DNA from: Schmidtea polychroa
Taxonomy: Eukaryota
Assembly: GCA_044892525.1 (NCBI GenBank)
Contig: CM097885.1
Coordinates: 183,272,001-183,336,000, forward strand
Reading direction: 5' to 3'
Length of the DNA: 64,000 nucleotides
The position numbers were made by a program, and so were the translations under genes. The notes beneath the pieces are model-generated. The model saw only the letters and a list, made by a program, of their open reading frames with translations. It was not told the origin of the DNA and made no database searches. Positions 3,946-40,207 of this stretch are shown in pieces. Numbering within the stretch: the first letter of the stretch is position 1; the number at the start of each line of letters is the position of its first letter.

Positions 3946-6634
3946 TACAGCACTGTAATGTACAATTTTATTCTTTTTTATTCCTAAACAAGGATACGGG
4001 ACGTCTGTCCATTTCGTTGGGCGTAAGTCGCGTTATAAAATTAAATAAGGAAACTATATAGCGATAATTCACTATGGTAAATTATCGATATACTAAAATT
4101 GAAAGATCGAAAAAAAATCGAATAAAAATTTTTTTTAATAGAAACTCATTCAATCATCTTCAATCTAATTATTATTCAGATTAACTGTGATAAATTTTCA
4201 ATACTATTCTTCCCAATCCCTATCTGAAGGAAATAGAAACTTATTCAGATTAACTGTGATAAATCACCAATCTATTCTTTCCCGACCCTTGCCAGAAATA
4301 ATTAGAAAATTGTCCTCGACATCTTCAAGGTTCATATAATTTTTTTTAATAAAAGTTGGAATCGTTTGTTAGTTTGTTTAACTAATATTATTTTAATATC
4401 ATATTTTTTGTCATTTGGTTGTCACAAAATTTTTACACACACGCACCCCGATTGTCCAGCCACATTTTTTAACGGTGACCCTATCGGGCTCTTCAAACTT
4501 CTTATCACACACCATCACACTTCATACAAATACCTAACTACATTCCTTATATAGTTCACTTGTCCTTCACTTGTCTTGCTCTACATAAATCTTTATATAT
4601 AGGTTTTCCAATAGGCTATTTCCAATCATATTTCTTAAGTTACCTCACACGCTGGTTACGCGAGGCTGCAGGTGGCGAGGTAATTTCCCATGAAAGTCTC
4701 ATATCCTGAAGTTTGAGATCTGAGTTCTTCAAGGCTTTTAACTAACATTTATTATTAATTCATGTATATATAATTATATATTTATTTATTCATATTTTTA
4801 TTTATTTGAGTAGCTCCCTATAGGGTTCTTACTACAAACGTATTTGTATTGAAATTTTTATTATACTATATAATATTATATTTTATTGAATTTCCGATTT
4901 AAATTTTCCAAACTATATTAGCTGCTTATGAATTAATCAATTATTGATTTTGTTGACTTTAACGATTTGGTTTTAATTATTTTATTAAGCTTACATTTAT
5001 TATTTATTTATTACTTTACTAAAATTTTCAGGGTACACAAAACAAAATAATTGAGGATACTAGATTTTATTTATTTATCACAATTTTTATTCTTTTATTG
5101 TTGTTTCCTTTGTATACAGCCACTATTTTTTCGAGCTGGAATTCCTTCCCGCCAAATGAAGACTCAGTAACAAACAAATCGGAACTAATAATTTTCAAAA
5201 ATAATCCCAGAAGATGAAGTAGAATTATAATCTATTCAAGATTCGACTAATCCGAACTTTATTGGTGAACTTTATATTAACAATTGATTAATTAATTTTG
5301 TATTTATTTTGTTGATGGACAATTGATTAATTTTATTTTGATGTTATATTTTTTTGTTTTAATATTAAATTTAGAAATACTACAATATATTATTAATAAC
5401 TTTACAATTAATTAATTCACGCCCTCTAGGGCCTAATTAAATTATAGAAAAATATTATTTCTATTATTGATATACATCACTTAAAAAAAACAAATTATGA
5501 TTGACTGTAATCATCACCTACAGGTCTTGTGTACAAAGTTCCTGTTTGTTTTTTAATTTTGTTCGACAAAAGGAATATTTATTATTGGAAGTAAAAATAA
5601 ACTGCTATCAAAATCAATAATAATAATAATAATAATAACAATAATAATGATAATAATTATAATAAACTCAGATAAAAATTTATATACATATACATAGACG
5701 GTTTATATAATGGCGGTTGGTGTGTACATCAATTATTGGTGACTCACCATTAATCAAAATAATGAATTTCATTTTTGAGATATTTTATTTTAGCCATTTT
5801 AAAAAATGGCTTTCAAATAAGTTTTAGCATTTTAATTAATTTTCAAGGATTGAATTTTGATTTTATATAGACATTCAAGTTTTTAAATATTACTTTTATT
5901 CAGCATTTATAATATAATTTATTTGTAATTACTTTTCGGCTTTTATTAGGATTTTAGACATAAAATTTATTTTGGAATTATTTCAATTTAATGATAGTTA
6001 GATAAATTTTGAATTATAATTAATTAAATTAAGTAATCGGCAAAAAGATTTAATTTTCCAAAACATTCCGGGAAAATTTGCCAAATATGAATAATGTAAT
6101 TTTTCAGATTTTTGTAAACTTTTTTTTCTCAGCTCAATATCAAGGGTGTTAGGCAAAAACTCAAAAAAATCAATAAATTATTATATTTCAACGAAAAAAA
6201 ACCACCAGGAAAAATGCAAATTAGAAAAGAAAGTTGTTTACGAAAAACAAATATTTTTGACAATTGAGGACTCTTGCCACTTAAAGTTTTAGTAAATAAA
6301 CCACGTTTCCTTCAGTCAAACAACCCATAAATCATATTTTCTGAATAGTTGAAAATTCAGTAATTGATATTTCAACATAATTTCTAGCATACATAAACAT
6401 ATCCAAACTAAGGCTCTTACATATCAACACATAAATATTATAAATACGCATAACTAATAAGCATACATATCAACATATATCACTCTTATATTTACTAAAA
6501 TTTCTACATTGCAAGTTAATTTAATTATCTGATAACTTTCCTATTAGAAAGACATTAAAAAATTATTTTATAAAGTAACATGATAACAGATTAAATTATT
6601 GCGAACTATTTTACTGCTAATAATATATATTTAC

Positions 6635-21446: not shown

Positions 21447-22268
21447 CATAACTTAGTTGATTCTTCTAATGTTATTTTTCTAACTTCTATAGGTAAACTG
21501 TGAATCCAGTTCGAGAATTTTTCCGGTTCAAGCATATTCAAATCAAGTCGTAGACAGAAACCAAGTGTCAATTTTATTATTTTATTCTTGAACATTTTCG
21601 TAGTATTATCTATTGGACTATAATAATTAAATTTTAATAGAAACGTTTTTCTTTCTTCTTCACGATATGCTTAAATTAAATTACTTAAAGTAAATCATTA
21701 CAGTAAAATTGAATTTTATGAGTACAATTTTTAATATTTTTTATATTTTACATTTTTTGATGAGATCAGATTGAACAAATGTTCGTGAACTGTTGGAACT
21801 CGTGCTGATGCTACAGCGGATGTTTCGACGTTTGGGCACATGGGGTTTAGGGAATGTCGAATTTGAGGTTATTACGAGATAATGAGATGATTCGGAACAA
21901 CCTTGAGTGTAGTTAGTCGGAGAGTTGAAGATAAAAACTATGATGAATAGTAGGAATGCAGATGTGTTTTGAAAGAATGAAAAATGTAATGCAGTGAGAA
22001 TTAGGCTGAGTATGGAGAGTTTTGTTCATTTAGAGCAGAGCTTTCCAACCGGTGTGTCGGCAGCGCTGCATAGGTGTGTCGGGTGAACATAATGAAAAGC
22101 CACAGAGTCCCTTAATTTTATAAACTTTTTAACGATTGTTAGACTGAAATACAATACACGTATATAGTCCGTCGTGTTTTAGCTGCAAGAACGCTTGTTT
22201 GCCCTATTTATTAGTTAATCGTTGGAATTCGATATTTATATTTAAATATGTTTCATTGTCTCTTGTAT

Positions 22269-22441
22269 TGTTGGGGTTCAGTAGGAACCTGAATCAAAAG
22301 TTTTGGAATTAAATAATAAGTAATTACTAAAATTAGGATTAAAATATAAATAGTATTTAAAAATTACTAAAATTGGAATTAAAATATCAAATTTCTCTTC
22401 ACACACATAAGGCTACTTCAACTTAACAACTGGTGTCAGAA
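22269..22441 (+). mobile_element. Internally deleted LTR of a second LTR element (TGTTGGGG…CTTAACA) plus PBS
   Basis: 22269-22387 is near-identical to 31154-31272; LTR end CTTAACA at 22428 followed by TGGTGTCAGAA (tRNA-Leu-type PBS). Confidence 0.75.
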
Positions 22442-22756
22442 AATTACCAAAGATACATGAAACAGAATAAACTAGAATCCAACGGAATAAACAAATAAAT
22501 TGTGAAGCAGGACTATATCTTATTCACGAAGGAGATTAAGGTTTTTACTTGACTTTTAATAAAAGCGTTATTATTATTCTTCGTTAATTTTATTTATACT
22601 TTTAATCAAATTGTAAATTTTATAATCATATTTTATAATCATATATATACAATATCTGCAAACATAACACGTACCCCGATTGTCCCGCCACATGTTTTAA
22701 CGGTGACTCTTTCGGGCTCTTCAAATTTCTCTTCACACACATAAGGCTACTTCAAC
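22438..22756 (+). repeat. ~320-bp LTR-distal segment, repeated at 27817-28139
   Basis: Near-identical direct repeat ending …AAGGCTACTTCAACTTAACA; a diverged relative lies at about 4400-4550. Confidence 0.9.
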
Positions 22757-22923
22757 NNNNNNNNNNNNNNNNNNNNNNNNNNNNNNNNNNNNNNNNNNNN
22801 NNNNNNNNNNNNNNNNNNNNNNNNNNNNNNNNNNNNNNNNNNNNNNNNNNNNNNNNNNNNNNNNNNNNNNNNNNNNNNNNNNNNNNNNNNNNNNNNNNNN
22901 NNNNNNNNNNNNNNNNNNNNNNN
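22757..22923. other. Assembly gap (N run)
   Basis: Ns. Confidence 1.
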
Positions 22924-23073
22924 GTTTTCTTTCAATCACGAAACCTTTCAGCATAGTTATTATAGAACTAGGCTAGTGACACTGTTGGCCGAACACAGTA
23001 GGCCATATCCTTCAAACAAACCACTATTTTTTTTCGCACAACAAGCAATAAAAAAACAGCAACAAAACAATTA

Positions 23074-24250
23074 ATGGCATCAAATCAAACAAATCCAACA
23101 AATATTCCACAAACACCCAACAACTACGATAACACTCAAACATCAGAAAGCACCAATTACTACTACAACCCAAACACCAACCCAGAAAACACACATACCA
23201 TTAATTCAATAATCAACCCAAAAACAAATATCCCCAACTATTTCACAGATGACAACGGAACACCGCAAAAATGGTTAGAATTCGCGAAACTAACCTTAAC
23301 GCTATCGGGAGTCAAGTCAACCAAATCCTTATGCTCCAACATAATAGCAGCACTACCAAGCAACAAATTAAACGAAATCGCCGACCAAATTGATGAAATA
23401 TCGAAAGACGATGATCCTTTTACAAAACTGTGTAACATATTGACCAACAAAAACAAAGTCAACAGAAGGCAAATGCTAGAGTCATGCCTCAACAATACAC
23501 AGTTAGGGGACAACAAGCCCACAGATTTCCTACGACAATTAAAACAAAAACTGGAGTATCTACAACCAAACATAAGAAACTCCGGATCCAACGAATTGGT
23601 GAAAGAATTCTTCATGCGCGCTATGCCACCGGAAATTAGACGAATCCTAGCCGCTAGCAGTAACGCTGACGTAGAAACACTCGCTGACATAGCGGATAAA
23701 ATAAACGAAGAAATCTACCCCACAATCTGCAGTACCCAAAAACTACAACAGAAATAAAACTAATCACAACACCCAATCAACCAACAAAAACACAGAACCA
23801 AATGAAACAACAAACCGATTAATAAACACTTTGATCAGCAAATTCGACGAAATAATTGTCGAAAACAGACAAATAAAAGCGGAACTAGCCGAAATAAAAG
23901 AGAAATACAACAGGCAAAATTTCAATCCAAACGAAAACAGAGACCTATTCAACAGAAACAATTTTAACACAGACCAACTATCATATAATCAAAACAGACA
24001 AAACTATGACCGACCATCTAACAGAAACAACAGACAGAACTACAGCCACAGACAATCCCCAAACGGCCACTACAGAAACCGGTCAAACTCCCCAAACCGA
24101 TACAACAATTACCGAAACAGCAGCCCAGAAAGGGATTCAAGAAATGATCTCCTAAACAAAAACCTCTGCTACTTTCACAACAAATTTGGCGACAAAGCAT
24201 ACAAATGCGTAAAACCCTGCGACTATCATAAAACAGAGCAGGAAAACTAA
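23074..24250 (+). pseudogene. gag: gag (frameshifted near 23730) with CHCC nucleocapsid motif
   Basis: ORFs 23074-23757 and 23831-24250 join by a frame change; C-X2-H-X9-C-X3-C (CYFHNKFGDKAYKCVKPC); ends GGAAAACTAA. Confidence 0.88.
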
Positions 24251-24261
24251 AAAAGTCACTA

Positions 24262-27200
24262 ATGATAGCACCCACATTAGGTGGCAAAAACAATACATTT
24301 TGGGTGCACACAAATAACACCGATTTTCTAATAGACACCGGTTCGGTGATCTCATTACTGCCACATTACATGTATAAAAATACAAAAACCGAAGATAAAC
24401 CGTTAACAGCAGCCAACGGAACAAGCATCAAAACATTCGGACAACAAACACTAAATCTGAATATAAACAAAAAAAATTACAAGTGGACATTCACAATAGC
24501 TGACGTTCAACAAGCAATAATAGGAGCAGATTTCCTAACAAAGTACAACCTCTTAGTGGATTGCAAAAACAAACAAATATTAGAAAATACCAATACAACA
24601 ACATCACGACACATCATGAGCAACCGAGAGAAACCAAAAATTGACATAGGCGTGGTAACTTTAAACACAAACAACAAAACTAACCTAGAAAAAATTACAC
24701 CAGAAATCAACAAAATCCTAGAACGATACAAAGAATTAATGGAACCAGACCAATTCGATGACAAATCAGAACAAACCACCGAACACGCAATTCTGACAAA
24801 TGGAAATCCAGTACATGCAAAAGTAAGACCACTGGATCCCAAAAAAATAGAAATTACAAGAAACATTTTCAACGAACTATTGGAAAACAACATAGTCAGA
24901 CATTCAAACTCTGAATGGTCATCAGCACTGATGCTAAAACAAAAAGCTAATGGCGATTGGAGAGCTTGCGGTGATTACAGACTTCTGAATAAAATAACAG
25001 AACCAGACAGCTACCCATTACCTATAATAAAAGACATAATAAACCGAATAAACGGCGTCAAATACTTCTCAAAAATAGATTTGCAAAAAGCATACCACCA
25101 GATACCTATTAGAAAAGAAGATGTAAAAAAGACAGCAATAACAACACCGATAGGAATGTTCGAGTACAACAGAATGCCTTTCGGTTTACGGAACGCCGCA
25201 GCAACTTTCCAAAGATTCATGGACCAAACAATGAAAAACAACAAAAACACAATAGCTTACCTGGACGACATTCTAATTACAAGCCCAGATAAAACAACCC
25301 ATTTAAAAGACGTAGAAAAAGTATTTGAAACACTGAACAAAGCAAAATTGAAAATAAATATACAAAAATGTGAATTTATAAAAACAGAAATAAACTTCCT
25401 TGGTCATACACTAAACGACAAAGGAACACAACCAATTGAAAACAAAATAAACAGCATAAAAAATTACAAACTGCCGACAAACACAAGAGAGTTGAGGAGA
25501 TTTCTAGGAATGGTAAACTTTTATCATTCTTATATCCCAAACTGCAGCAAACTACTAGCCCCACTAAATGACATTATCAAAACAAAACGAAATGTCATAA
25601 TAAACTGGACACAACAGACAACCGATATTTTCGAGAAAGCCAAAAAAAGTCTGTCAACGGCAACACTACTCGGTTACCCAGATCCAGAGCTAGACTACCA
25701 ACTAACAACAGACTGTTCAGGTTTTGCCATGGGCGCAACAATTTTTCAAGAAAACAAACACGGCAAACAACCACTAGGATTCTTCTCTAAAAAACTAAAG
25801 TCACACCAAACAAGATACTCAACATTCGACAGAGAACTCCTGGCAATACACGAGGCAATCAAACACTTCCAACATTTGCTTGAAGGACGAAACTTCAAAA
25901 TATTCACAGATCACAAACCGCTAACTAACGCGATCGAAATGAAGAATCCTTCACCAAGACAGATCAGACAAATCAATTTCATTTCACAATTCAACTGCAC
26001 AATAAACTACATAGCGGGAAAATCAAACATAGCAGCGGACGCTCTATCAAGAAACGAAAGTGACATAAACTCCCTGGAATTCGAAGAGATAATCGAATTG
26101 GATCAAATTAAATCCAAACAAAATGAAACAATTAATAAACTCCCCACTAAACACAGTTTGAAACTACAAGAACTCAACGGAGTATGGCACGACATCTCCA
26201 ACGAAAGCAATAAACGAATATTACTCCCGGAGGAATTCCGCCAAAACTGTATCGAAAAGATACACAAGATTAATCACCCGGGAAACAAAGTAACATTCGA
26301 GCTAATACATAACAACTATATATGGCCTAACATGCGGAAAGATATCAAAAACTATGTCAAGAGTTGTCACAGCTGCCAACTAAACAAAACAACAAAAAAA
26401 CTCAAAACACAAAAAGTAAACTTCCCAAGCAGCGAAACATTTGAAACAATACACACAGATGTGGTAGGACCATTACCACCAAACGACAACTACAAATACC
26501 TCCTAACAATTATAGACAGGAAATCCAACTGGTTCGAAGCAATCCCAATAAAAGAAATCAGCGCGAAAAATATCTGTGAAATGATCGAATTAAATTGGAT
26601 AGCTCGTTATGGCCAACCAAAAACAATCATAACTGACCAAGGCAGACAGTTCGAGTCAGAAATGTTCAAAATACTCTGTAACAAATACAACATCAAAAGG
26701 AACCGAACAACAGCTTACAACCCACAATCAAACGGGAAAATTGAACGGTTCCACAGAACATTAAAAGAAAGTATCAGAACAAAAGCCAACGATCAAAACT
26801 AGTTAAATAAACTACCCACTATACTAATCGGACTAAGAAACAGTCCAAACTCATTAGATAATGAAAGTCCAGCATACAAGGTTTTCGGAAAAGCAACAAA
26901 CTTGCCATCACTTAAATCAGATACAAACAAAAACACTGAAAACATCAAACAAACAACAAACAAAAATAGCGAAACCACCGAACAGAAACCAAAAGGAATT
27001 TTAAAGAGGAGACCGGACTCCGAATTGGACGGAAAAACAGTATTAACAACAGATTTCATCCTAATAAAAAAACAATTCACAAAAGGATTCGAATCCAAAT
27101 ACGAAGGTCCATTCAAACTCCTAGAAATCAACAAAAACGTCGCTACAATAATTAAAAATAACAACAAAATGAAAATAAACATAAGACGCATAAAACCCTA

Positions 27201-27378
27201 TCACCAGAACATAAACCCGCAAAACGATATACCAAAAAACAAAACACAAACACAAACGAAAACACAACCAATTCACAAAAACGTCACATTCAACAATAAA
27301 AACTCAATCAAACTATTCGAAAAAGACACAACAATCACTCCCCCACATAAAACATTATACAGCGAACGCCATAAATAA
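24262..27378 (+). pseudogene. pol: pol (protease-RT-RNase H-integrase) with one premature stop at 26800-26802
   Basis: DTG protease, YLDD RT, TDCS…TDHKPL RNase H, HHCC and D,D35E integrase core, GPF motif; TAG where Trp is expected (NDQN*LNKLP), same frame continues to 27378. Confidence 0.95.
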
Positions 27379-28139
27379 AAACCCACACAAGCAGAACACA
27401 AGCACAAACAAAATCAGTTGTACAGTTTTATTCATTTGCTTTTAATTATGTAATCGGTTGTAAATTTTTTGAATTTTTTTCCAGGTTGTAAAAAAAAATA
27501 AACAAAAAACAAACAAAACACATACAAAACACATAAAAAAAACATACAAAACATACAAAAAAAATGAAAAAAGTGTTGCGGAATGTTACCGTTCATGTAA
27601 TTTTTATTTTTTATAGTTCATGTTAACCTCCGGTTTTAAAGGGGGAAGTTATGTAATAGCATTTTATATTTTTTAATTGTCCGAAATAAAAAATATTTAA
27701 AAAAAATAAAAAACTATATAGTAAAAAAAAAATCAAAAAAAGAAATTGAAAATTAAAATTGAAATTAAAAATTGAATGAAAATTGGAAATTATAAAAAGA
27801 ATTCAACTATTATTCAAGAAAATTACCAAAGATACATGAAACAGAAGAAACTAGAATCCAACGGAATAAACAAATAAATTGTGAAGCAGGACTATATCTT
27901 ATTCACGAAGGAGATTAAGGTTTTTACTTGACTTTTAATAAAAGCGTTATTATTGTTCATCGTTAATTTTATTTATACTTTTAATCAAATTGTAAATTTT
28001 ATAATCATATTTTATAATCATATATATACAATATCTGCAAACATAACACGCACCCCGATTGTCCCGCCACATGTTTTAACGGTGACTCTTTCGGGCTCTT
28101 CAAATTTCTCTTCACACATAAGGCTACTTCAACTTAACA

Positions 28140-28534
28140 TATACTATAGTCCGAGGAAACGGCAGGACGATAGGTGGTTCGAGGTATTCGAGGAGATATT
28201 ACCTCTTAAACAGCCAGTTATAACGAAGATACCACCAAAAGTAGTCAGGGAGAACATGGTGATACATCCCGCGATATGGCAACATCTCAGACAGTTACCA
28301 CCTATCAAACAAATATCTTGCCAAACGACCCCAAATCTGACAAACTGTTGTGATTGTAATGCCATCACAAACTTTAATGCAGGATATATTCTGAAAATAC
28401 CCATAGGGGTATGGATTACGGTATCGGCCGTACTATCGCTAATAACCACACTGATAGCTATGGGTATTTGGACCAAGTTATATTTTAGACAAGCCATAAG
28501 GGCTTACGATGGAGTACTGATGTCGCAATTATGA
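28140..28534 (+). CDS. 5'-truncated membrane-protein ORF in LTR element (env-like position)
   Basis: Cys-rich segment (CCDC), hydrophobic helix IPIGVWITVSAVLSLITTLIAMGIW, short tail with YDGV; lies between an LTR segment and a second accessory gene. Confidence 0.55.
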
Positions 28535-28732
28535 CAATTACAGACTCCCCCGAGGGAAAAATCATATATAAATATTTATATATATCTTAAAATCTATATT
28601 TACGTAGAGCTCCAGGTAGCATTAAAATTCAGCATATGTAGATCTTTTATAATAAGACTCATGCATATCTTTTTAGCCTATTATGGCATATCAGTATATC
28701 TGATATTATGGTTAATGATTTTTATTTCAGGA

Positions 28733-30821
28733 ATGCAGAGCCATCCAATATCCCAATACTAAGGAAGACATAGCATTATACGTGCTACGACCTTATTAAA
28801 GGAAAAACTTATTTATAAAAACCTGGAGAAGCAGGTAATGGAGCAAAGCAGAAAAGGACAAAGGCACTGGTTTTACGGACATTGTTCAGGCATACCCAAT
28901 AATTTCAAATTTGACGAGGCCCCAAAGCGTCAAATGATTATTTCAAGAATCCCGGGCAAGCATAACGCTAGTATTAGGCTTACCGAGGTCATGCCTGAGT
29001 TTGGCAGACATAGTCTGACCAACCACCTGTGGATACACGCCATTAACAAACCATTTACGGTTTATGTTCCTGGCGCCACAAACCCTATTTTGCTGCAAAA
29101 GCATACAACCCTGGAAATTGAAAACAGAGATGGAAGGGAAAAGAACATCTCACTGTTATGTGAAGGAATAGATACCATCGTAGCAATGGAAATTCTGGAA
29201 TCTCACAGAGAAACACAAACGAGATGGGTTAATGACCCAAATTGGACATATAATGTCAATGATAACGACATCAAAAGTTTAAGTCTTTCGTAAGACAGCG
29301 CTTGGACCCTAGACAAGAGGATAACCTCACCATTTTCGTAGCAGCTCACTACGCTACACTACGACAATTCCTGAAACTGGCAATTGTGGCCATCTCAATC
29401 TCACATTTCAATGGCGATCTGATACTCAACACTAGAGTTACCCCCAGAGCACAGGTCAAACATTACCAATCGCATGCGCATGGTATGACCGAGAGAGAAA
29501 TAACCGGACAGTTCAACGGAGAAGACTGTGCCGAAAGAATTAGGAAAATCTGCGATGGGAAAATCATCGTGGGACTGTTAGTAAAGGACCTATTAGAAAT
29601 AATCAGATTCCCAATGCAGCGCGCACTCGGAATCCGTGAGTTAGGCGCAGCTAAATGCCTCGAAAATAGGGACTTAAAGAAATGCAACGGGTATTACCGT
29701 TTGGCATATTTGGCAAAAGCAGTCACCGGTTAAGAGGCACATCACTTCTCGGACCTTCAAACGGAGAATGATGTAACAACCATTAAGGAGATATACGACA
29801 ATTTACGAGATATCTGGGTTGATGACATTTCCCCAGACACCCGGAAAGAGGTGGTGTCTTCACAAATAAAGCAGATGGAACCCGGAACCTCAAGCATGCA
29901 GAAACCCTTAGCTATGGAGAGCTATATAAAAGAAGATATCCCAGGTCTAAGTTGTTGAAAATAGTGGAAGAAGATTCCTTGTCGCCGCCAGCCATCTCTA
30001 TTGCTGACGAAGACGAATATGCCACTTGCGAGAGCGCGGACGATAACTGCCTCCAAGTCACCCTTACCAATGACGGTAGAGTGGTGAATTCGGCTAAAAT
30101 GGAAACAGAAAAATCACCGCCAGCAGCAAAGCTAGTGGAACGGGTCACCAAGATCTTAAAGGCATTGACCCCGTTGAGTGAACCCAAACAAGGAGCAGAA
30201 GGAGGAACATTGCCCCAAGCTGTAGCACCACTACTTAGGCTACAAGATTTAAAGTTCAAAAAGAAAACAACGGAGGAACCCACCCAGAAAGAGGACAAGG
30301 AGAAAAATGTCCCTACCTCTACGAAAAGGAAAAGGGAGATTCCTAAGAGTATAAAAAAGAAAATGCCTAGGATATCCATCCAGGATGAGGATGACGATCT
30401 CTTAGAAACCCACTATCAGCCACCAGATCCTGCATTGACCAAGATATTGGCAACAAAGAGTGAACCCACGATTGCAGGAGAGCCTATTATCGTGAAGGAA
30501 GGCGAGTTCGTAGGAAGGGGCAACTCAATCAAAATACGGGAAGATCTCGACAGAGAAGATCCTAGTTGGTGGCAGAGACCCGACAGCGAATGGAAACCGC
30601 GTGTCAAGGAATACGACGGAGGCCCAATCCATGAAGTAGCCGTATCCAATTTCAGCGATTACGGAGTATTGGAGGCTAGTGAGGGCACATATATCATCTC
30701 CTCAATCGTGTACAAAGAAGTAAGTACACGGGAGACTTTGGTGGTCAGCTACAGACCAGACATAGTAGAACAAAGGATCCGTAACGAAATTGCCAAGGTC
30801 ATGAAACGGAGAAAATATTAG
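28733..30821 (+). pseudogene. Accessory gene containing a DEDDh (REXO4/ISG20-like) exonuclease-fold domain; two frameshifts and internal stops
   Basis: Acceptor TTTATTTCAG 2 nt before ATG; segments 28733-29293, 29302-29947 and 29952-30821; middle segment follows the REXO4 pattern (SISHFNGDLILNTRVTP…HYQSHAHGMT…KIIVG…KDL…LAYLAKAVTG…ENDV…IY). Confidence 0.65.
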
Positions 30822-31141
30822 CAATTCGGCTATGTATTCAATGGACCTAGCAATTTGCTATACGTCCTCAATCCCAGCACCTTCGACAATTCAATCCAAT
30901 CCAGTTATTCAAATTGACAAACATTTACTTTATGAACAATATTTGACTATTCTGATTTTGGTGTTGATTTTGTTTACATATTTTAACATTTCCTTGATGA
31001 ACAATCTTTGATTATTTTGATTTTGATTTTGCTTGCATTATATATATTTTAATCAGTTGTTTTATTTTTATTTTTATATTTATGTATCAGCTGCAATTGT
31101 CTTGTCTTTACCGCTTTAATTTTCGGGACGAAAATCTTGTT

Positions 31142-31272
31142 AGGGGGAAGACATGTTGGGGTTCAGTAGGAACCTGAATCAAAAGTTTTGTAATTAAATA
31201 ATAAGTAATTACTAAAATTAGGATTAAAATATAAATAGTATTTAAAAATTACTAAAATTGGAATTAAAATAT
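31142..31272 (+). mobile_element. PPT and start of 3' LTR of the accessory-gene-bearing element
   Basis: AGGGGGAAGACA directly before TGTTGGGGTTCAGTAGG (31154), matching the LTR start at 22269; right end not resolved. Confidence 0.8.
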
Positions 31273-32149
31273 AAATAGTAATAAATAATTACAAAAAATA
31301 AATTCGTAACAAAAATAGTAATTATTTAAAAATATATAATAAAAATAGTAATTAAATAATTACTATTAATAGATTTAAAATAAATAAATTTATATAAATA
31401 CCAGTAAAATTATATTGATAGGAGAGAAAAAAAGATCGTAGATCAGAAAAATCAAAAGGAGAAGTTAAAATTAGATTGGGAAAAATTTCTAGTTGTTATC
31501 TCATTGGACGAATTTCTGTTTTAGTGAACATTCCGTATTCATTTTATTGATCGGAAGAAAAAGAAATTTACAAATCTCTTGGAAATTTAATATCGCGACA
31601 CTGTAAATTAGCTCCAATATTCATTGGAGTAATTGAGAAGAGAACAAAAGAAGAAAACAATTAGGAATCGTTTCGACAACCCATCTGTGGTTTCGTCTAT
31701 CTACTTGAAGGAATTTAAACAAAGAAAATTAAATTAGTTAGTATTTATTGTTGTTCATATCTAAATAAATATAAATATATAAATTTATTCTGTCACATAA
31801 AACGATTTTAATAAGGGAAACAGTAACGTCAGCACGTATCTTTTTGTGTTGTCTCGTTACGAATATTATTTAAAAAAGAGTTAACCGATTTCTGGGTTGA
31901 CTCTATCGCGTTAAAATTAGGTAAACTCCCTTATCTCTTTTCCGCTCACCTATATCGGGCTGTTGGCGCATTTAGGGCCAGCCTTGATTCTTAGTAATAC
32001 TCTTTAGGGCGGTTTGTATAACCGTTTTCTGTTCTTTAGAAAGCAGCGTGATTAATTGTGTAATATAAACAATTGTGTAACTAACTATTTATTGTTAATA
32101 AATATTTAAATCATATTCGTTATTTTATTTACCTACACGCATTATAAAT

Positions 32150-33150
32150 TATTTGGAGTCAGTTAAACGTTTTTTTTTGTGTTAGTTCGAATACATACCC
32201 ATCGAACCTGACAGTATAACTGTTTACCATATGGTGTAAGTTGTATGACGTCTGGTTTTCTGATAAAACTGATTTGCTGTGTCGCGAAATGATGGAAGTC
32301 TAAAAAGTGTGTCACAAGCATGAAAAGTTTGGAAAGCACTGATTTAGAGGTATCAAAAATACTTCCAGAATAAACAACATGAATCAATTCGTTATTGAAA
32401 TCGCCGCAGAGGCAGGAGTCCTGAAGTAATTAGTAGTAAGGAATTCACTTTCAATCTGTTAGCAGGGTAATCAAACTATCAAGAGCAAATGCAAAATCCT
32501 CGTCTTATTGAGATAAATCTCTGTAGTATAGGGCATAGTCATCTTTTAGTAGAAATCATTGCAAACTCATCTTTCACAAATTTCGTTTTATCCACGCACT
32601 AAACAGCACCGGATCGATAGTAATAAGAGACCCATAACACATAATATCTCATTAGGAGTTTCGCTGTAAATTAGATTGCTTGATAGAAAAATTATATAGG
32701 CGCGTCAAAAATCTCAATTAGTTCAGTTGCATACGATTATACAGTTTAATCGTCGTTCAATTAAATGCAATTTGGCAGACCAACTCTTATAACACGCATC
32801 GCGATAGATCAGCGAACACCGTCGTCGTTCATCAGAGCTAGCAAGCGAGATATAAACAGGAAACGTCATCATCATAAATATCAATCTTGATTCACAACCA
32901 AGGTAGAGGAAGTGCGGTCGATTGTAGATACCGAGTAAATATAGACAAACCTGGAAGCATAACACCATTTACCCGCAATATAAACAATATTCGATTAGAG
33001 TGTATAATATTGATATCAACAATGAACTTGCTCCGGTGATCATCGCCGTACCAAATGAATATATAAATAAACAAAATATGGCACGTCAAGCTGAATATGA
33101 CGACCATGAATGCGAATTCAATTATTCTGTAGTACGTAAACATTAGTTTT
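32150..33150 (-). mobile_element. Degenerate non-LTR (LINE) reverse transcriptase
   Basis: Fragments resembling P.LF..W(I)N and DDYALY…LD.L patterns on the minus strand. Confidence 0.5.
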
Positions 33151-35096: not shown

Positions 35097-38000
35097 TAGG
35101 GTGCCAATGAAATACATGGCAAAAATTTAAGTGTAATATTTTTCAGGTCTTACCCCCTAATTTTGTTCCTATTGATATGGTAATCAACTGGTATTTTTTT
35201 CTTCAACATTCAATTATATTTAGAGGTTTCTCACTGGCATCATAGTCCAACATATTGTACGTTATGGGTTTATTCCTAATAAAATACAACATTGAGTTGA
35301 ATGAGTTTACTTACTTATTAGTGTGAGTCATTGCAATTATATATTCTTTGGAGATTGTTGTTGTCTGCATTTTTATTGGATTTTAAATTTTGTTCTTTAT
35401 TGCGTGTGTGACTTGTGACTTTCTTATTTAATGCAAAGCTAACTCTGGGTAAGTGTATTGTTTCATAACACTTAATTTATGAATATTTAATTGGTGCAAT
35501 AGACTGATTTGTTGCAAATTGGCCAGTGGGTCTGTCAGTGTCTAGTTGTCTAGTCCTGCTACTTATTTTTTGTTGTTGTTGCAATGCAAGTATAACGTTG
35601 CTTATTATAATAGATCTGAGCTACTGACTACTGACTGACTTGTGAGCTTGTTTTATATTTTTCTGTGCATATACTTGCAGATATCCTGGTTCAATGGCAG
35701 CTGTGTGTATAAGTAAAGGCAAAGATCGAGGCATCTGGTTGATTGGTGGAACATTGAGTGAACTAACAGGCAGCAAACTACCATCAAATCGACAAGTACT
35801 TGCAAGATTTTTCCACTTTCATTTGAATGAAAAGCTGACTATTCAGGACAGTGCTGTATCAACAACAAGAGAACTATTACAATTTTGGATGAAAGCCAGA
35901 ATACCAACCCGACAGGACTATAATATTGTTGCCAAGTTGAAGGATTTACATGCAAAATGGCAAGCGCTTAAGAAAAATACGGCAAGGATGTCCAAAGTGC
36001 AAAAGAGTAAAGAGGATGCATTTTCGGAAAGTTTGGATGATTTATTCGATGTTGCACATGCAAATGCAATGAAACGCATCAAAATTGAAGAGGACAAGAA
36101 ATTCTTGGAAGCACAGCGAGAAAAGGGCAGGCGGGGATGCATGGGTGCAGTAGACACAAAGCTTACGAAGCAGGAGGAAAGACGCCGGCAGCGAGAACTT
36201 TTAGAGGAGCAAAGAAAGGTCAGAGAAGAGCAGAGACAGTGCGATGCTTCAGTCGTAAGAAGTTTGGGTGAAAGCAGTGAAAGTGAAGATGACAGCAGTA
36301 GTCTAACAGTGTCGGATCCCAGTATGTCTATGCCAGCGCCAAAACGTCACCGTCCAATGAACATACTTACTCCAGAGCTGGCATCTGCACTTGATCGGAC
36401 GAAAGTAAGTGACAGAAATGCCACGTACATTTTGGCTGCCGCTGCCAAGTCACTTGGCCACAATCCCAGTGAGCTAACTTTAAACAAAGAGTCAACCAGA
36501 CTAGCTCGAAGGCAACATCGTGCAGACATTGCTGCAGAAGTGCGAAACAGTTTTTCACCCGATACGCCATTGACAGTTCACTGGGATGGCAAGCTGCTTC
36601 CCGAGTTGACAGGAAAAGAGACTGTGGATAGACTTGCAATAATTGTGTCTGGGGATGGCGTAATGAAACTGTTGGCTGTTCCCAAGTTATCAAGTGGAAC
36701 TGGTGAAGCTCAGGCTACAGCAGTGCATGAAGTGTTACTGGACTGGAATTTAACCGATCGAATTATTGGCATGTCATTTGACACCACAGCAAGCAACTCC
36801 GGAAATAAAGCTGGCGCATGCGTTTTGTTGGAAAACAAGTTGAAGAAACAGCTGTTGAGTTTGGCATGCAGGCACCACATTCATGAACTTATTGTCGCTA
36901 AAGTCTTTGAAACAGTGATTGAAAAGGCATCAAGTGGTCCACAGATCAAATTGTTCCAGAGATTCTCAGCAGCATGGAGAACAATCAACAGACAAGCGTT
37001 TGAAAGTGGTATCGGTGATGATCAACTTGCCAGTGAACTAAATCCAATCAAAGAAGAAATGCTTGTCTTTCTGAAGCAGCAGCTTCTGACATTCCAGCCA
37101 AGAGACGACTATAAGGAGTTACTTCAGTTGAGCATTTTGTTTCTTGGTGATGCGTCTGATAATGTCACTGTGCATGCACCAGGAGCCTATCACAGAGCCA
37201 AGTGGATGGCCAAACTTATATACTGTCTCAAAATTTACTTGTACCGTTCACAGTTTCATCTTACACCTCGAGAACTTTCAGGACTTCGACAAATGAATGT
37301 TTTCGTCATCACCATCTACCTGAAGGTGTGGTTTACTTGTCCATCGGCACCTTCAGCTCCGCAACATGACTTGGAATTGTTGCAGCAACTAGTCCAGTAC
37401 AAAACAAGAAATGAAGCAGTTGCCAATGCAGCACTCATTATCTTTCTTCGCCATCTGTGGTACCTCGGTGAAACCCTGATCGGTTTGGCTTTCTTTGATG
37501 ACGAAGTGCCGGTCGAGAGTAAAGAGCTAATGGTTGCCGCACTATCGCGTGAAGGTGAAGAAGAGCCATGCAAACGTATACAACTGGATGAGAAGGACAT
37601 TTCTACAAAGAAACTCTCAGATTTCGTCACAACCAATACCAGGCAGTTCTTTGTCGCACTCGAAATTCCACAGGACTTCCTCCGACAGCATCCTTTAGGA
37701 TGGAAATCTAACTCTGACTACATTCGGGGTCTGAGTCGTGTCAAGGCTCTTAAAGTTGTCAATGATGCAGCTGAACGTGGCGTATCACTGATACAATCAT
37801 TTAATGTTGTCATTACAAACCAGGAGGAACAGAAACAGTTTTTACTTCAGGTGGTCGAGAAGCATCGCCACGACTACCCGGACCCCAAGAAGTCTACGCT
37901 TGCAGGCTGCTCCAGTGACAATTAAACTTGCACTTTTACTTAAGTAGATTCAGCTAAGCACAGTGTAATGTGTGTAATAGCACTAAACTTCACTTTGCAG

Positions 38001-38387: not shown

Positions 38388-40207
38388 GGTGGCCCATGCA
38401 GTATAGCAAAAAAATAAAAGTTTTAAACTTCACCTTCTCACCCTTCCAACTTGTTCCAATGTTGAAAAGAAAATTTTCTGTGAAATATTTTCTGAAATTT
38501 CTCGACATTTAGAGGTGGCCCAACAATCTAGAAGTTTGAAGTACAAATATTTTAAAGTGGTTTTTATACGTTTTTGCTACTTGTACTGTGTTTGACGAAA
38601 TTATGAGCAGCAAAATTATTTCATTTTTATTACAACATTAACTGTAGTGAAAACAGAGACATATTTGACAATAAACACACCTAACAACCGAAGCAGTTTA
38701 CTAGTTTCGTTTATCACTGGGCCTATAGTCACTAGCCAGATTTCAGCTGTGATGCTGCAATTGTTCTAGCTTTACACCTGGCTCGGTGGATTGAGTTCCT
38801 GCTGATGTTGAGGGAATCAACATTGTGACTAAGGCTGGATGCTGTTTCACACAACACATAAACAGCATTTCTGGAGGATGTCTGTGTTCTGTCCAGAGCT
38901 GCCATTAGCCCAGGAGTCAATACATCAGTCTTAGCTTTCTTTGGCACTGGCTTTGTGATACAGTCAGCAGGATCTGTTGATGAGGATGCAACAGGTTTAT
39001 ATTCATCATCACACAAGACAATCTGCTCTTGGTCATGGTCACTGTCTTCACCAGATGATGATTCGAGAGTTGTCAAACAAGCACTGATATTCATTTCATC
39101 TACTGACCTTTGCCGCCGCCTTGCTTCAGCTTGTTTGCGTTCACCAGCTGCTCTAGCTTTACGTTCAGTAACTTTATCCCGGACACCAATGGATCCTGGA
39201 CGCCCTTTTTCTCTCTGGCGTAACAGGAATGCCCTGTCTTCTGGGTTGCTAATGATAGTTAGTGCATCCTGATGGGCTATGTCGAACAGATCTTCAAGAT
39301 GAGAAACAAATTCATGCTCCTGTTTTTTGTGAGCTTCACCAGACCTCGACTTGTGTTTTTGGAGACCCTTCCATTCATAAAAGACTGATTCAAGCTTCTG
39401 AATGCAGTGCTGTTCTGCTCTTGTTGGAATGCTTGCTTTTTTCCAGAACTCCATTATCACGTTGATTGTCAGTTTACTGGCTTCGCAAAGAGTCATTTTT
39501 TCTACTTTATGTAGGTGTAGAAAGTACCCAAATGTCTGATAATACGATGGCAGCTTTGCACTAAGAATTTCAGGAACATATGATTTAATCAAGTAAACAT
39601 TATCATTAGATCTTGTTTCCATTCTGTTAAATCTGAAACACAATAACATGGAGAGTGGAGACGATTAGGTTAAGCAAAACACTAGGCATAATTGAATGAA
39701 CAACTGAAAAATTTTAAATTTGCTGTATAGTACAAGAGTACATTTAACATTGTAAAATGCATTCAACAACGATGTGTTTTTGCATGTAATTCAGCAAAGT
39801 AAAATACTGACTATTAATACATGAAGAGAACAAAGATTGCATAATTACATCTCGACTGGTGAGTAATAGCTGACTTTTTGTCTCAAAAATGAAAAACAAA
39901 TATAAACATAAACAGAAGAGAATTAGCAAAGAATGTCTAATAAATTCAATAAAATACCAATAAATAAGTAACACTTAAATAGGTTAATCATCCATACTCT
40001 CTCAGTCACTGCTATATAACAAACCAATAACTCGCCCTGAATTACCGGCAAAAGAAACACCATGTCAAAACTTCATCACCAGTGGGCCACCTTTAAATAT
40101 TGTCAAATTGCAGAAATATTTTGCACTAATTATTTTTATAGCAATTGGAACAACTTGGAAGGGTGAGAGTTGTTAGTTTTTAACTTTCAATTTTTTGGGC
40201 CACCCTA
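38385..40207 (-). mobile_element. Internally deleted hATm-like element of a second family
   Basis: TIR TAGGGTGGCCCA, subterminal inverted repeats, TSD ATATATAT; ORF 38732-39649 is homologous to the N-terminal ~280 aa of the neighbouring transposase and lacks the DDE core. Confidence 0.9.

Follow-up and report, generated by a model that had tools for sequence, protein, structure and literature searches.

The window, a stretch of 64,000 nt from Schmidtea polychroa (contig CM097885.1, positions 183,272,001 to 183,336,000, forward strand), contains a broken copy of the second ORF (ORF2) of an envelope-bearing gypsy family of about 15 kb, here called family A. The host family-A insertion occupies 22269-32213 and is flanked by a GTAT duplication (4-bp TSD). 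Compared with a natural copy, it is without the remainder of the 5' LTR and without most of ORF1. The locus is composed as follows:

22265..22268, no strand: 5' TSD GTAT of the family-A host element; the same 4-mer is found at 32214-32217
22269..22388, + strand: first 120 nt of the family-A 5' LTR, with 2 differences from 31154-31273
22389..28139, + strand: nested gypsy element B, unrelated to family A and not the carrier of the accessory gene
23002-24250, + strand: gag of element B, inside 22389..28139
24232-27378, + strand: pol of element B, inside 22389..28139, with its own PPT after it
27652-28139, + strand: 3' LTR of element B
28140..28534, + strand: 3' end of family-A ORF1, comprising the ectodomain tail that follows the integrase, a hydrophobic TM-like segment and the TGA stop (28532-28534); in natural copies it runs on from the integrase
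28535..28732, + strand: spacer of 198 nt, conserved at the DNA level, which opens with CAATTA right behind the TGA, has no stop in the ORF2 frame and has an acceptor-like end (AG at 28729-28730)
28733..29209, + strand: ORF2 N-terminal domain (aa 1-159), a predicted double-stranded beta-helix of the 2OG-Fe(II) dioxygenase type lacking the HxD..H and R..R motifs; the window copy has an in-frame stop at 28760
29266..29826, + strand: ORF2 putative pseudo-nuclease domain of the ISG20/REXO4-type DEDDh group (catalytic columns A204, H206, L287, L342, D347); the window copy has a frameshift near 29276 and a stop at 29731
29827..30455, + strand: ORF2 linker, charged and of low complexity; frameshift near 29938 in the window copy
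30456..30821, + strand: ORF2 C-terminal domain of about 120 aa, assigned to no protein family and, among the sequences compared, only in families A, A' and F
about 31142-31151, + strand: polypurine tract (PPT)
31154..32213, + strand: family-A 3' LTR, followed by the TSD GTAT at 32214-32217

The acceptor-like sequence TTTTTATTTCAG ends at 28730, the ATG follows at 28733 and the frame ends at 30821. The acceptor-like AG, the ATG, the PPT, the 3' LTR and the motifs quoted from 29266-29830 are present as described in an earlier note on this DNA. The two frameshifts reported there became four breaks when the window copy was compared with a natural unbroken copy, namely two deletions of a single nucleotide (near 29276 and 29938) and two in-frame stops (28760 and 29731). 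The gag-pol beside the gene (23002-27378) does not belong with it but to the nested element B, whose RT is 31-36% identical to every Burro-like family compared and 32-34% identical to that of family A. The 5' end of element B is rearranged (window 22387-22760) and reads as 42 nt of LTR end, a PBS-like stretch and 320 nt of LTR again, followed by an N run; another 85-90% copy of part of its LTR lies at 4439-4524. Farther downstream are a 759-aa ORF (35646-37925) and a related 310-aa ORF (38732-39664), which we take to resemble DNA-transposon transposases.

Copies, structure and selection of the carrier family

In the same genome (G000), the ORF2 region is multi-copy, with 48 DNA matches from 40 scored out of 210 candidates, and a search with the ORF2 protein gave 151 matches from 1084 candidates. 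By hand count, stop-free frames of 761-771 codons occur in about 29 of the 94 best other matches. LTR pairs that are 98.7-100% identical bound nine of the ten natural loci examined, delimiting an element of about 14-15.3 kb, and the linkage to an LTR proposed earlier, as opposed to a single-copy host sequence, is thereby upheld. Natural family-A copies possess an unbroken second ORF of 696 aa upstream of the PPT. Starting from the ATG behind the acceptor, unbroken frames of 695-696 aa were found in 18 of 39 family-A copies and of 690 aa in 11 of 12 copies of the related family F, counts that are not rates since many copies were picked for long frames; the continuity of the ORF in other copies, raised in the earlier note, is borne out by the former.

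Selection among copies was evaluated as pooled pairwise pN/pS values, the pairs not being independent. The 18 unbroken family-A frames gave 0.08 for the N-terminal part (aa 1-175), 0.08 for the exonuclease part (aa 176-365), 0.19 for the linker and 0.15 for the C-terminal part, and the 11 family-F frames gave 0.12, 0.04, 0.21 and 0.14, respectively. ORF2 in family A is under strong purifying selection despite the loss of four of its five catalytic residues.

ORF1 of family F is a single frame of 3516 codons that encodes, in order, CCHC knuckles, a weak ubiquitin hit, a Monjiviricetes fusion glycoprotein, protease, RT, RNase H, integrase and a tail with a hydrophobic end. The env lies in frame between gag and protease (Pfam PF24664, E 6e-45 and 1e-29), and family A resembles family F at the DNA level across this region. 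In the family-F gag, Pfam detected three stretches of zf-CCHC and, weakly, ubiquitin (E 0.055). The polyprotein of this family may also contain BCL2-like and dUTPase-like motifs; Pfam matched neither BCL2 nor dUTPase in family-F ORF1. MATH, BIR and ankyrin had no Pfam match in the elements examined. The earlier link to the giant LTR elements of planarians with extra ORFs agrees with this Burro-type polyprotein with its env in frame.

In all these envelope-bearing families (window 28140-28534; L023:4700-5687; L116, L120 and L154), the post-integrase end of ORF1 comprises a signal-like segment, an ectodomain of 300-400 aa and a TM-like anchor. The ectodomain matched no Pfam family, and it carries what we take to be FN3-like motifs; from its sequence layout this tail is possibly a second surface protein. 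Several rearranged loci were also noticed. A long tandem array with a unit of about 2.88 kb of family-F ORF2 fragments occupies G000:C3:106.49-106.52 Mb and 107.05-107.22 Mb, family-F elements stand head to tail with common LTRs and a 14.2-kb period at G000:C2:100.87-100.90 Mb (L070), and internal deletions at L052 (G000:C2:116.10 Mb), L060 and L064 fuse earlier ORF1 to ORF2 or to the spacer, in one case creating a frame of 1478 codons.

The primer site occurs exactly 947 times in the genome (control, 0). Twenty evenly spaced sites among the first 100 listed, all on C1, were sampled, and 11 of these 20 loci had env, RT and integrase in order. Among these 11 elements, three carry the two-domain ORF2 (all intact) and eight are without it; a deleted copy in the 20-locus sample is a fourth carrier. 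By their ORF1 sequence the eight ORF2-less elements are one family, and because this abundant sister family lacks ORF2, ORF2 is accessory.

Domains of the ORF2 protein and its catalytic residues

The middle domain had been described earlier as a DEDDh exonuclease fold similar to REXO4/ISG20, and profile searches and structure prediction confirm a DnaQ-like DEDDh fold of the ISG20/REXO4 type. It was annotated in the atlas as RNase_T (0.95), and a 78-row ORF2 profile matched ISG20L2 (1.4e-31), ISG20 (1.4e-21) and SDN1 (6e-19). A first fold from 9 alignment rows only had a pLDDT of 45; the structure predicted from the 78-row alignment reached 93.6, and its exonuclease domain matched ISG20 with a Z of 17.9 and an rmsd of 2.8 over 161 residues. 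ISG20L2 was the top match in PDB searches, and the predicted model matched it with an E of 2.9e-9. Word-index searches with ORF2 returned no homologue, and in single-sequence searches Pfam RNase_T matched neither the window pieces nor the unbroken ORF2 of families A and F; because Pfam alone is blank on these, the link from family A to RNase_T came through sisters and profiles. The closest cellular relatives of the domain are ISG20, ISG20L2, REXO4 and SDN1. A full HMMER scan gave 145 clusters, 62 of them at E<=1e-10, and a quick tree of the exonuclease domain placed 69 element-type rows on their own branch versus 36 REXO4-like rows (SH-aLRT 99), these labels being assigned from motifs. One homologue of 1113 aa (P0022) has the two-domain module at its N-terminus and a remainder without a Pfam match.

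In family A, the catalytic columns read A204, H206, L287, L342 and D347, so that one of five residues is kept, the ExoIII Asp. The ExoI D-x-E is replaced, as the earlier note had observed, by A204/H206 in family A, and by S/G in family F. When aligned with intact sisters, the ExoII column contains L287, with an Asp (D286) one position early, and the ExoIII His column contains L342. The earlier statement that the Asp residues of ExoII and ExoIII are both retained thus holds for D347 and fails for ExoII, and since the ExoIII His is also gone, the catalytic loss is more complete than had been claimed. Family F has G at the position of H206 and E at that of D347.

The ExoI D/E, absent from the other family-A copies, is present in sister elements. 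An RNase_T search of the genome gave 39 places. Twenty of these loci were compared with the family-A profile: 19 matched it, with E values from 1e-11 to 3e-29, and the remaining one resembles a host ERI-type gene. The intact sister ORFs score above the Pfam RNase_T cut-off. Six RNase_T loci were examined: three are complete sister elements that share the PBS, the env inside the polyprotein and the ORF2 position, and a fourth has an integrase upstream. The exonuclease domain of the sister elements reads D-x-E, E, H, D, with the ExoIII H-x4-D of the DEDDh type. When 10 of the 78 homologue rows were dropped for gaps, the active site was intact in 39 of the 68 scorable rows and lost in 29, one of the latter looking truncated; retroelement context was established for homologues within G000, the others being known as sequences.

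A two-domain tree contains five changes between intact and lost, at least four of them forced, rejects a single dead clade (p-AU 0.001) and places families A and F inside a dead group of 12 rows. In the quick exonuclease-only tree, 23 dead rows form one group, with long-branch warnings, and the single origin of dead forms that it suggested is rejected by the two-domain tree. The catalytic site thus appears to have been lost at least four times across the homologues, a history to be read with caution, given the long branches of the dead rows and the disagreement of the two trees over how many losses occurred. The non-catalytic motifs P238-R239, G300-x-R302-D/E-L, D262 and G281 are kept in 14 dead and 39 intact rows alike. 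At the catalytic columns, dead rows show freely varying replacements. By analogy with the ISG20 family, the conserved non-catalytic residues would face RNA, and many of them may be structural. The RT and ORF2 trees of eight copies from this genome agree, and therefore the cargo is old and has for the most part been passed down together with the element. From the earlier proposal of a captured nuclease, accessory status remains, whereas a fresh capture by family A does not, because the two-domain ORF is common to sister families with intact active sites and because the two trees agree.

The N-terminal domain, formerly of unknown type, is predicted to have a likeness to the 2OG-Fe(II)-dioxygenase-type fold, a resemblance that does not amount to calling it an AlkB enzyme. 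Its predicted structure (residues 1-159) matched OsALKBH1 with a Z of 11.0 and an rmsd of 3.3 over 139 aligned residues, followed by P4H (10.7), ALKBH6 (10.7) and ALKBH3 (10.2), with ALKBH7 also tied. An independent, weaker model gave the same fold class at a Z of about 9 with cupins close behind, and the scores of about 9-11 are tied among P4H, ALKBH and cupins. The metal and 2OG motifs are nearly absent: of 68 rows, two have HxD/E and one has Rx5R, none of them in family A, strands having been assigned by analogy. Using hhalign, no profile match was obtained between this domain and host ALKBH/AlkB with a template of only three host sequences. The domain has a conserved polar set of its own, Y28, P55, N56, K59, H102 and E153, in intact and dead rows, with H102 in 61 of 68, E153 in 62 of 73 and N56 in 58 of 66 rows.

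Expression of ORF2

ORF2 is likely made from a spliced mRNA. The motif TTAAT..ATTTT..YAG with an ATG 2-4 nt on is kept in families A, A', F and F2b despite differences in its reading frame, and an AG lies 2-8 nt upstream of the ATG in 6 of 10 sister copies. The phase of the motif differs between families and therefore a non-coding first exon, with ORF2 having its own start, is suggested. The same data would be compatible with cis-splicing, trans-splicing or internal initiation alike. The part of the earlier description as spliced that stands is the conservation of the acceptor motif near the ATG. When contigs, and contigs only, were compared with the family-F tandem locus and one family-A copy, no junction was seen at the acceptor; among the loose contig ends listed, one lies near it, 17 nt off, and matches nothing among the sequences compared. 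The only GTRAG donor common to the LTR/leader of three families lies inside the PBS, which is constrained in any case, and it was discarded as a splice donor. Over the 100 nt upstream of the acceptor (L061, L063 and L065 versus L023), F and F2b have almost the same DNA in different frames, with small hairpins, and the family-F spacer folds at a z of about -3; judged from its sequence, this stretch is likely an RNA element.

In family A the spacer continues the ORF1 frame without a stop, an arrangement that splicing alone does not explain. A tentative alternative is that in A and A' ORF2 would also be produced as a C-terminal extension of the polyprotein by leaky UGA-CAA-UUA readthrough, tethered behind the terminal membrane anchor and loaded into particles. 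CARYYA is a readthrough context of the tobamovirus type. TGA-CAATTA stands at the end of ORF1 in 33 of 39 family-A copies, which were found by searching for this motif, and also in A', at about 55% protein identity. Of 32 family-A copies measured, 31 have a spacer of 198 or 195 nt and 29 have one without stops; 0.3-0.4% of shuffled spacers are open, and the p for staying open after 62 A/A' differences is about 0.03. However, spacer variants are without synonymous excess (8 synonymous, 20 nonsynonymous, 2 stop) and the A versus A' differences are distributed as 25/16/21 over the codon positions; the spacer data show a constraint at the DNA level and not at the codon level. Moreover, the spacer is closed in F2b and shifted in 4 of 11 family-F copies and a double stop follows ORF1 in 7 of 9 sister copies, and therefore readthrough cannot be the general route. 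A readthrough stimulator in family A is unsupported by its RNA fold (z about -1). Family F has G_GAA_AAU before the ORF1 stop, an open -1 frame and a hairpin at a z of about -2.5; -1 frameshifting was dropped in view of the closed F2b spacer and the shifted F copies. A hydrophobic leader as a TM segment was likewise set aside, as it may be an effect of T-rich DNA and has no codon-position signal.

Function and comparison with known systems

Four of the five catalytic residues are lost in family A, yet selection is strong, and therefore its ORF2 product is likely a non-cutting RNA-binding helper. The best explanation, with a probability of about 0.58, is an accessory factor of this kind in which an ISG20/REXO4-type domain with lost catalytic residues stands behind a predicted dioxygenase-type fold, likely expressed from a spliced mRNA. 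The ancestral ORF2 would have encoded an active 3'-5' RNA exonuclease with a degenerate beta-helix as partner domain, and several lineages, family A included, would have dropped catalysis and kept the surface facing nucleic acid. The protein might then occupy 3' ends or duplexes of the element's RNA and, instead of trimming it, shield it from host decay or small-RNA processing.

A wider version, which may be entertained with considerable reserve, makes ORF2 a virus-like RNA counter-defence gene of envelope-bearing planarian retroelements, composed of an ISG20-type exonuclease and a dioxygenase-derived reader fold, repeatedly turned into a pseudo-enzyme that would shield element RNA or jam the piRNA or decay machinery and be expressed in family A both from spliced mRNA and, through UGA-CAAUUA readthrough, as a membrane-tethered extension. 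The main rival, though a rather doubtful one, is that, by analogy with Maelstrom/EXD1, the dead domain would chiefly serve as a decoy or scaffold for proteins and jam a host complex of RNA silencing or decay, which would be bound through the beta-helix and the C-terminal domain. The catalytic sites of both folded domains are degenerate, the new C-terminal domain occurs, among the sequences compared, in A, A' and F only, and ORF2 diverges much faster than RT (39% versus 74% identity, A versus F), all of which would suit a decoy. Burro elements are PIWI targets (PMC8532177), and the parallel with the Maelstrom/EXD1 pseudo-nucleases of piRNA pathways is drawn in PMC5408684. However, selection within families is purifying and not diversifying, and self-silencing would be costly to the element.

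Compared with the non-cutting RNA-binding factor, a remodelled site appears improbable. The family-A domain would then still be a nuclease via D286, D347, N346 and H206, and/or the beta-helix would bind metal or ligand via Y28, N56, K59, H102 and E153. The retention of D347 and the shifted D286 in family A, and that of H102, E153 and N56 in most rows, would fit, but dead rows differ freely in what replaces the catalytic residues, and family F has substituted both H206 and D347. The reading of ORF2 as a decaying relic or as a single-copy host gene beside an LTR, for which the four breaks of the window copy would speak, is refuted by the open frames, the LTR linkage and the pN/pS of 0.08 and deserves practically no credence.

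Accessory genes of LTR elements are mostly uncharacterised, and for the few that have enzyme folds no role is known. Here, one genome contains natural sister families that are active-site-intact, pseudo-enzyme and ORF2-less on the same backbone, some copies were recently mobile (LTRs 100% identical), and the animal group has tractable RNAi and PIWI biology; therefore the role of the exonuclease cargo and its need for catalysis are directly testable. A further result is a two-domain protein family of 62 clusters (E<=1e-10) with dead members that escape Pfam, together with a degenerate dioxygenase-type fold with conserved polar residues of its own.

An ISG20-type or dioxygenase-fused ORF in planarian elements was not found in full-text literature searches; the original Burro paper, its supplement and Repbase lay outside that scope and may annotate this ORF. 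Exonuclease cargo in LTR elements is itself already known from the DEDDy ORF3 of bdelloid Juno/Vesta LTR retrotransposons and Terminons (PMC5408684), and the ISG20-type/dioxygenase-fold fusion is a variant not found in the literature searched. Both are DnaQ-superfamily 3'-5' exonucleases encoded by a family-specific 3' accessory ORF present in some branches only. The bdelloid ORF3, in that account, is RNase D-like DEDDy with intact residues, whereas the ORF described here is ISG20/REXO4-like DEDDh with a beta-helix, intact and dead, in envelope-bearing elements.

ISG20, ISG20L2, REXO4 and SDN1 give the best sequence and structure matches, and the sister ORFs keep their D-x-E, D/E, H and D; unlike them, the element proteins form their own 69-row branch and family A is without four catalytic residues. 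KolobokD (PMC9587614) also has a DEDDh nuclease as transposon cargo, but it is a DNA transposon with a TREX/ERI1/exuperantia-like DEDDh and not an ISG20-like one. The AlkB/2-ODD ORF of orchid Ty3/Gypsy elements (PMC9289625) is likewise a 2OG-dioxygenase-type fold carried by a retrotransposon; in orchids the domain is an m6A demethylase with HxD/E..H and RxxxxxR retained, whereas these motifs are absent here and the likeness is by predicted fold only. The giant gypsy-like Burro/GYPSM1 elements of planarians are described in PMC6431247. As described in section 7 there, they differ from the present elements in size (over 30 kb versus about 15 kb), the MATH/BIR/ankyrin domains have no match here, and the exonuclease/dioxygenase-fold ORF and the post-integrase membrane protein receive no mention. 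In both, one polyprotein runs from gag to integrase, contains CCHC knuckles and has a fusion glycoprotein of the mononegavirus type in frame ahead of the protease; a ubiquitin-like segment is matched weakly here. By the features described, size excepted, the predicted architecture of the carrier matches that of a Burro-like gypsy element.
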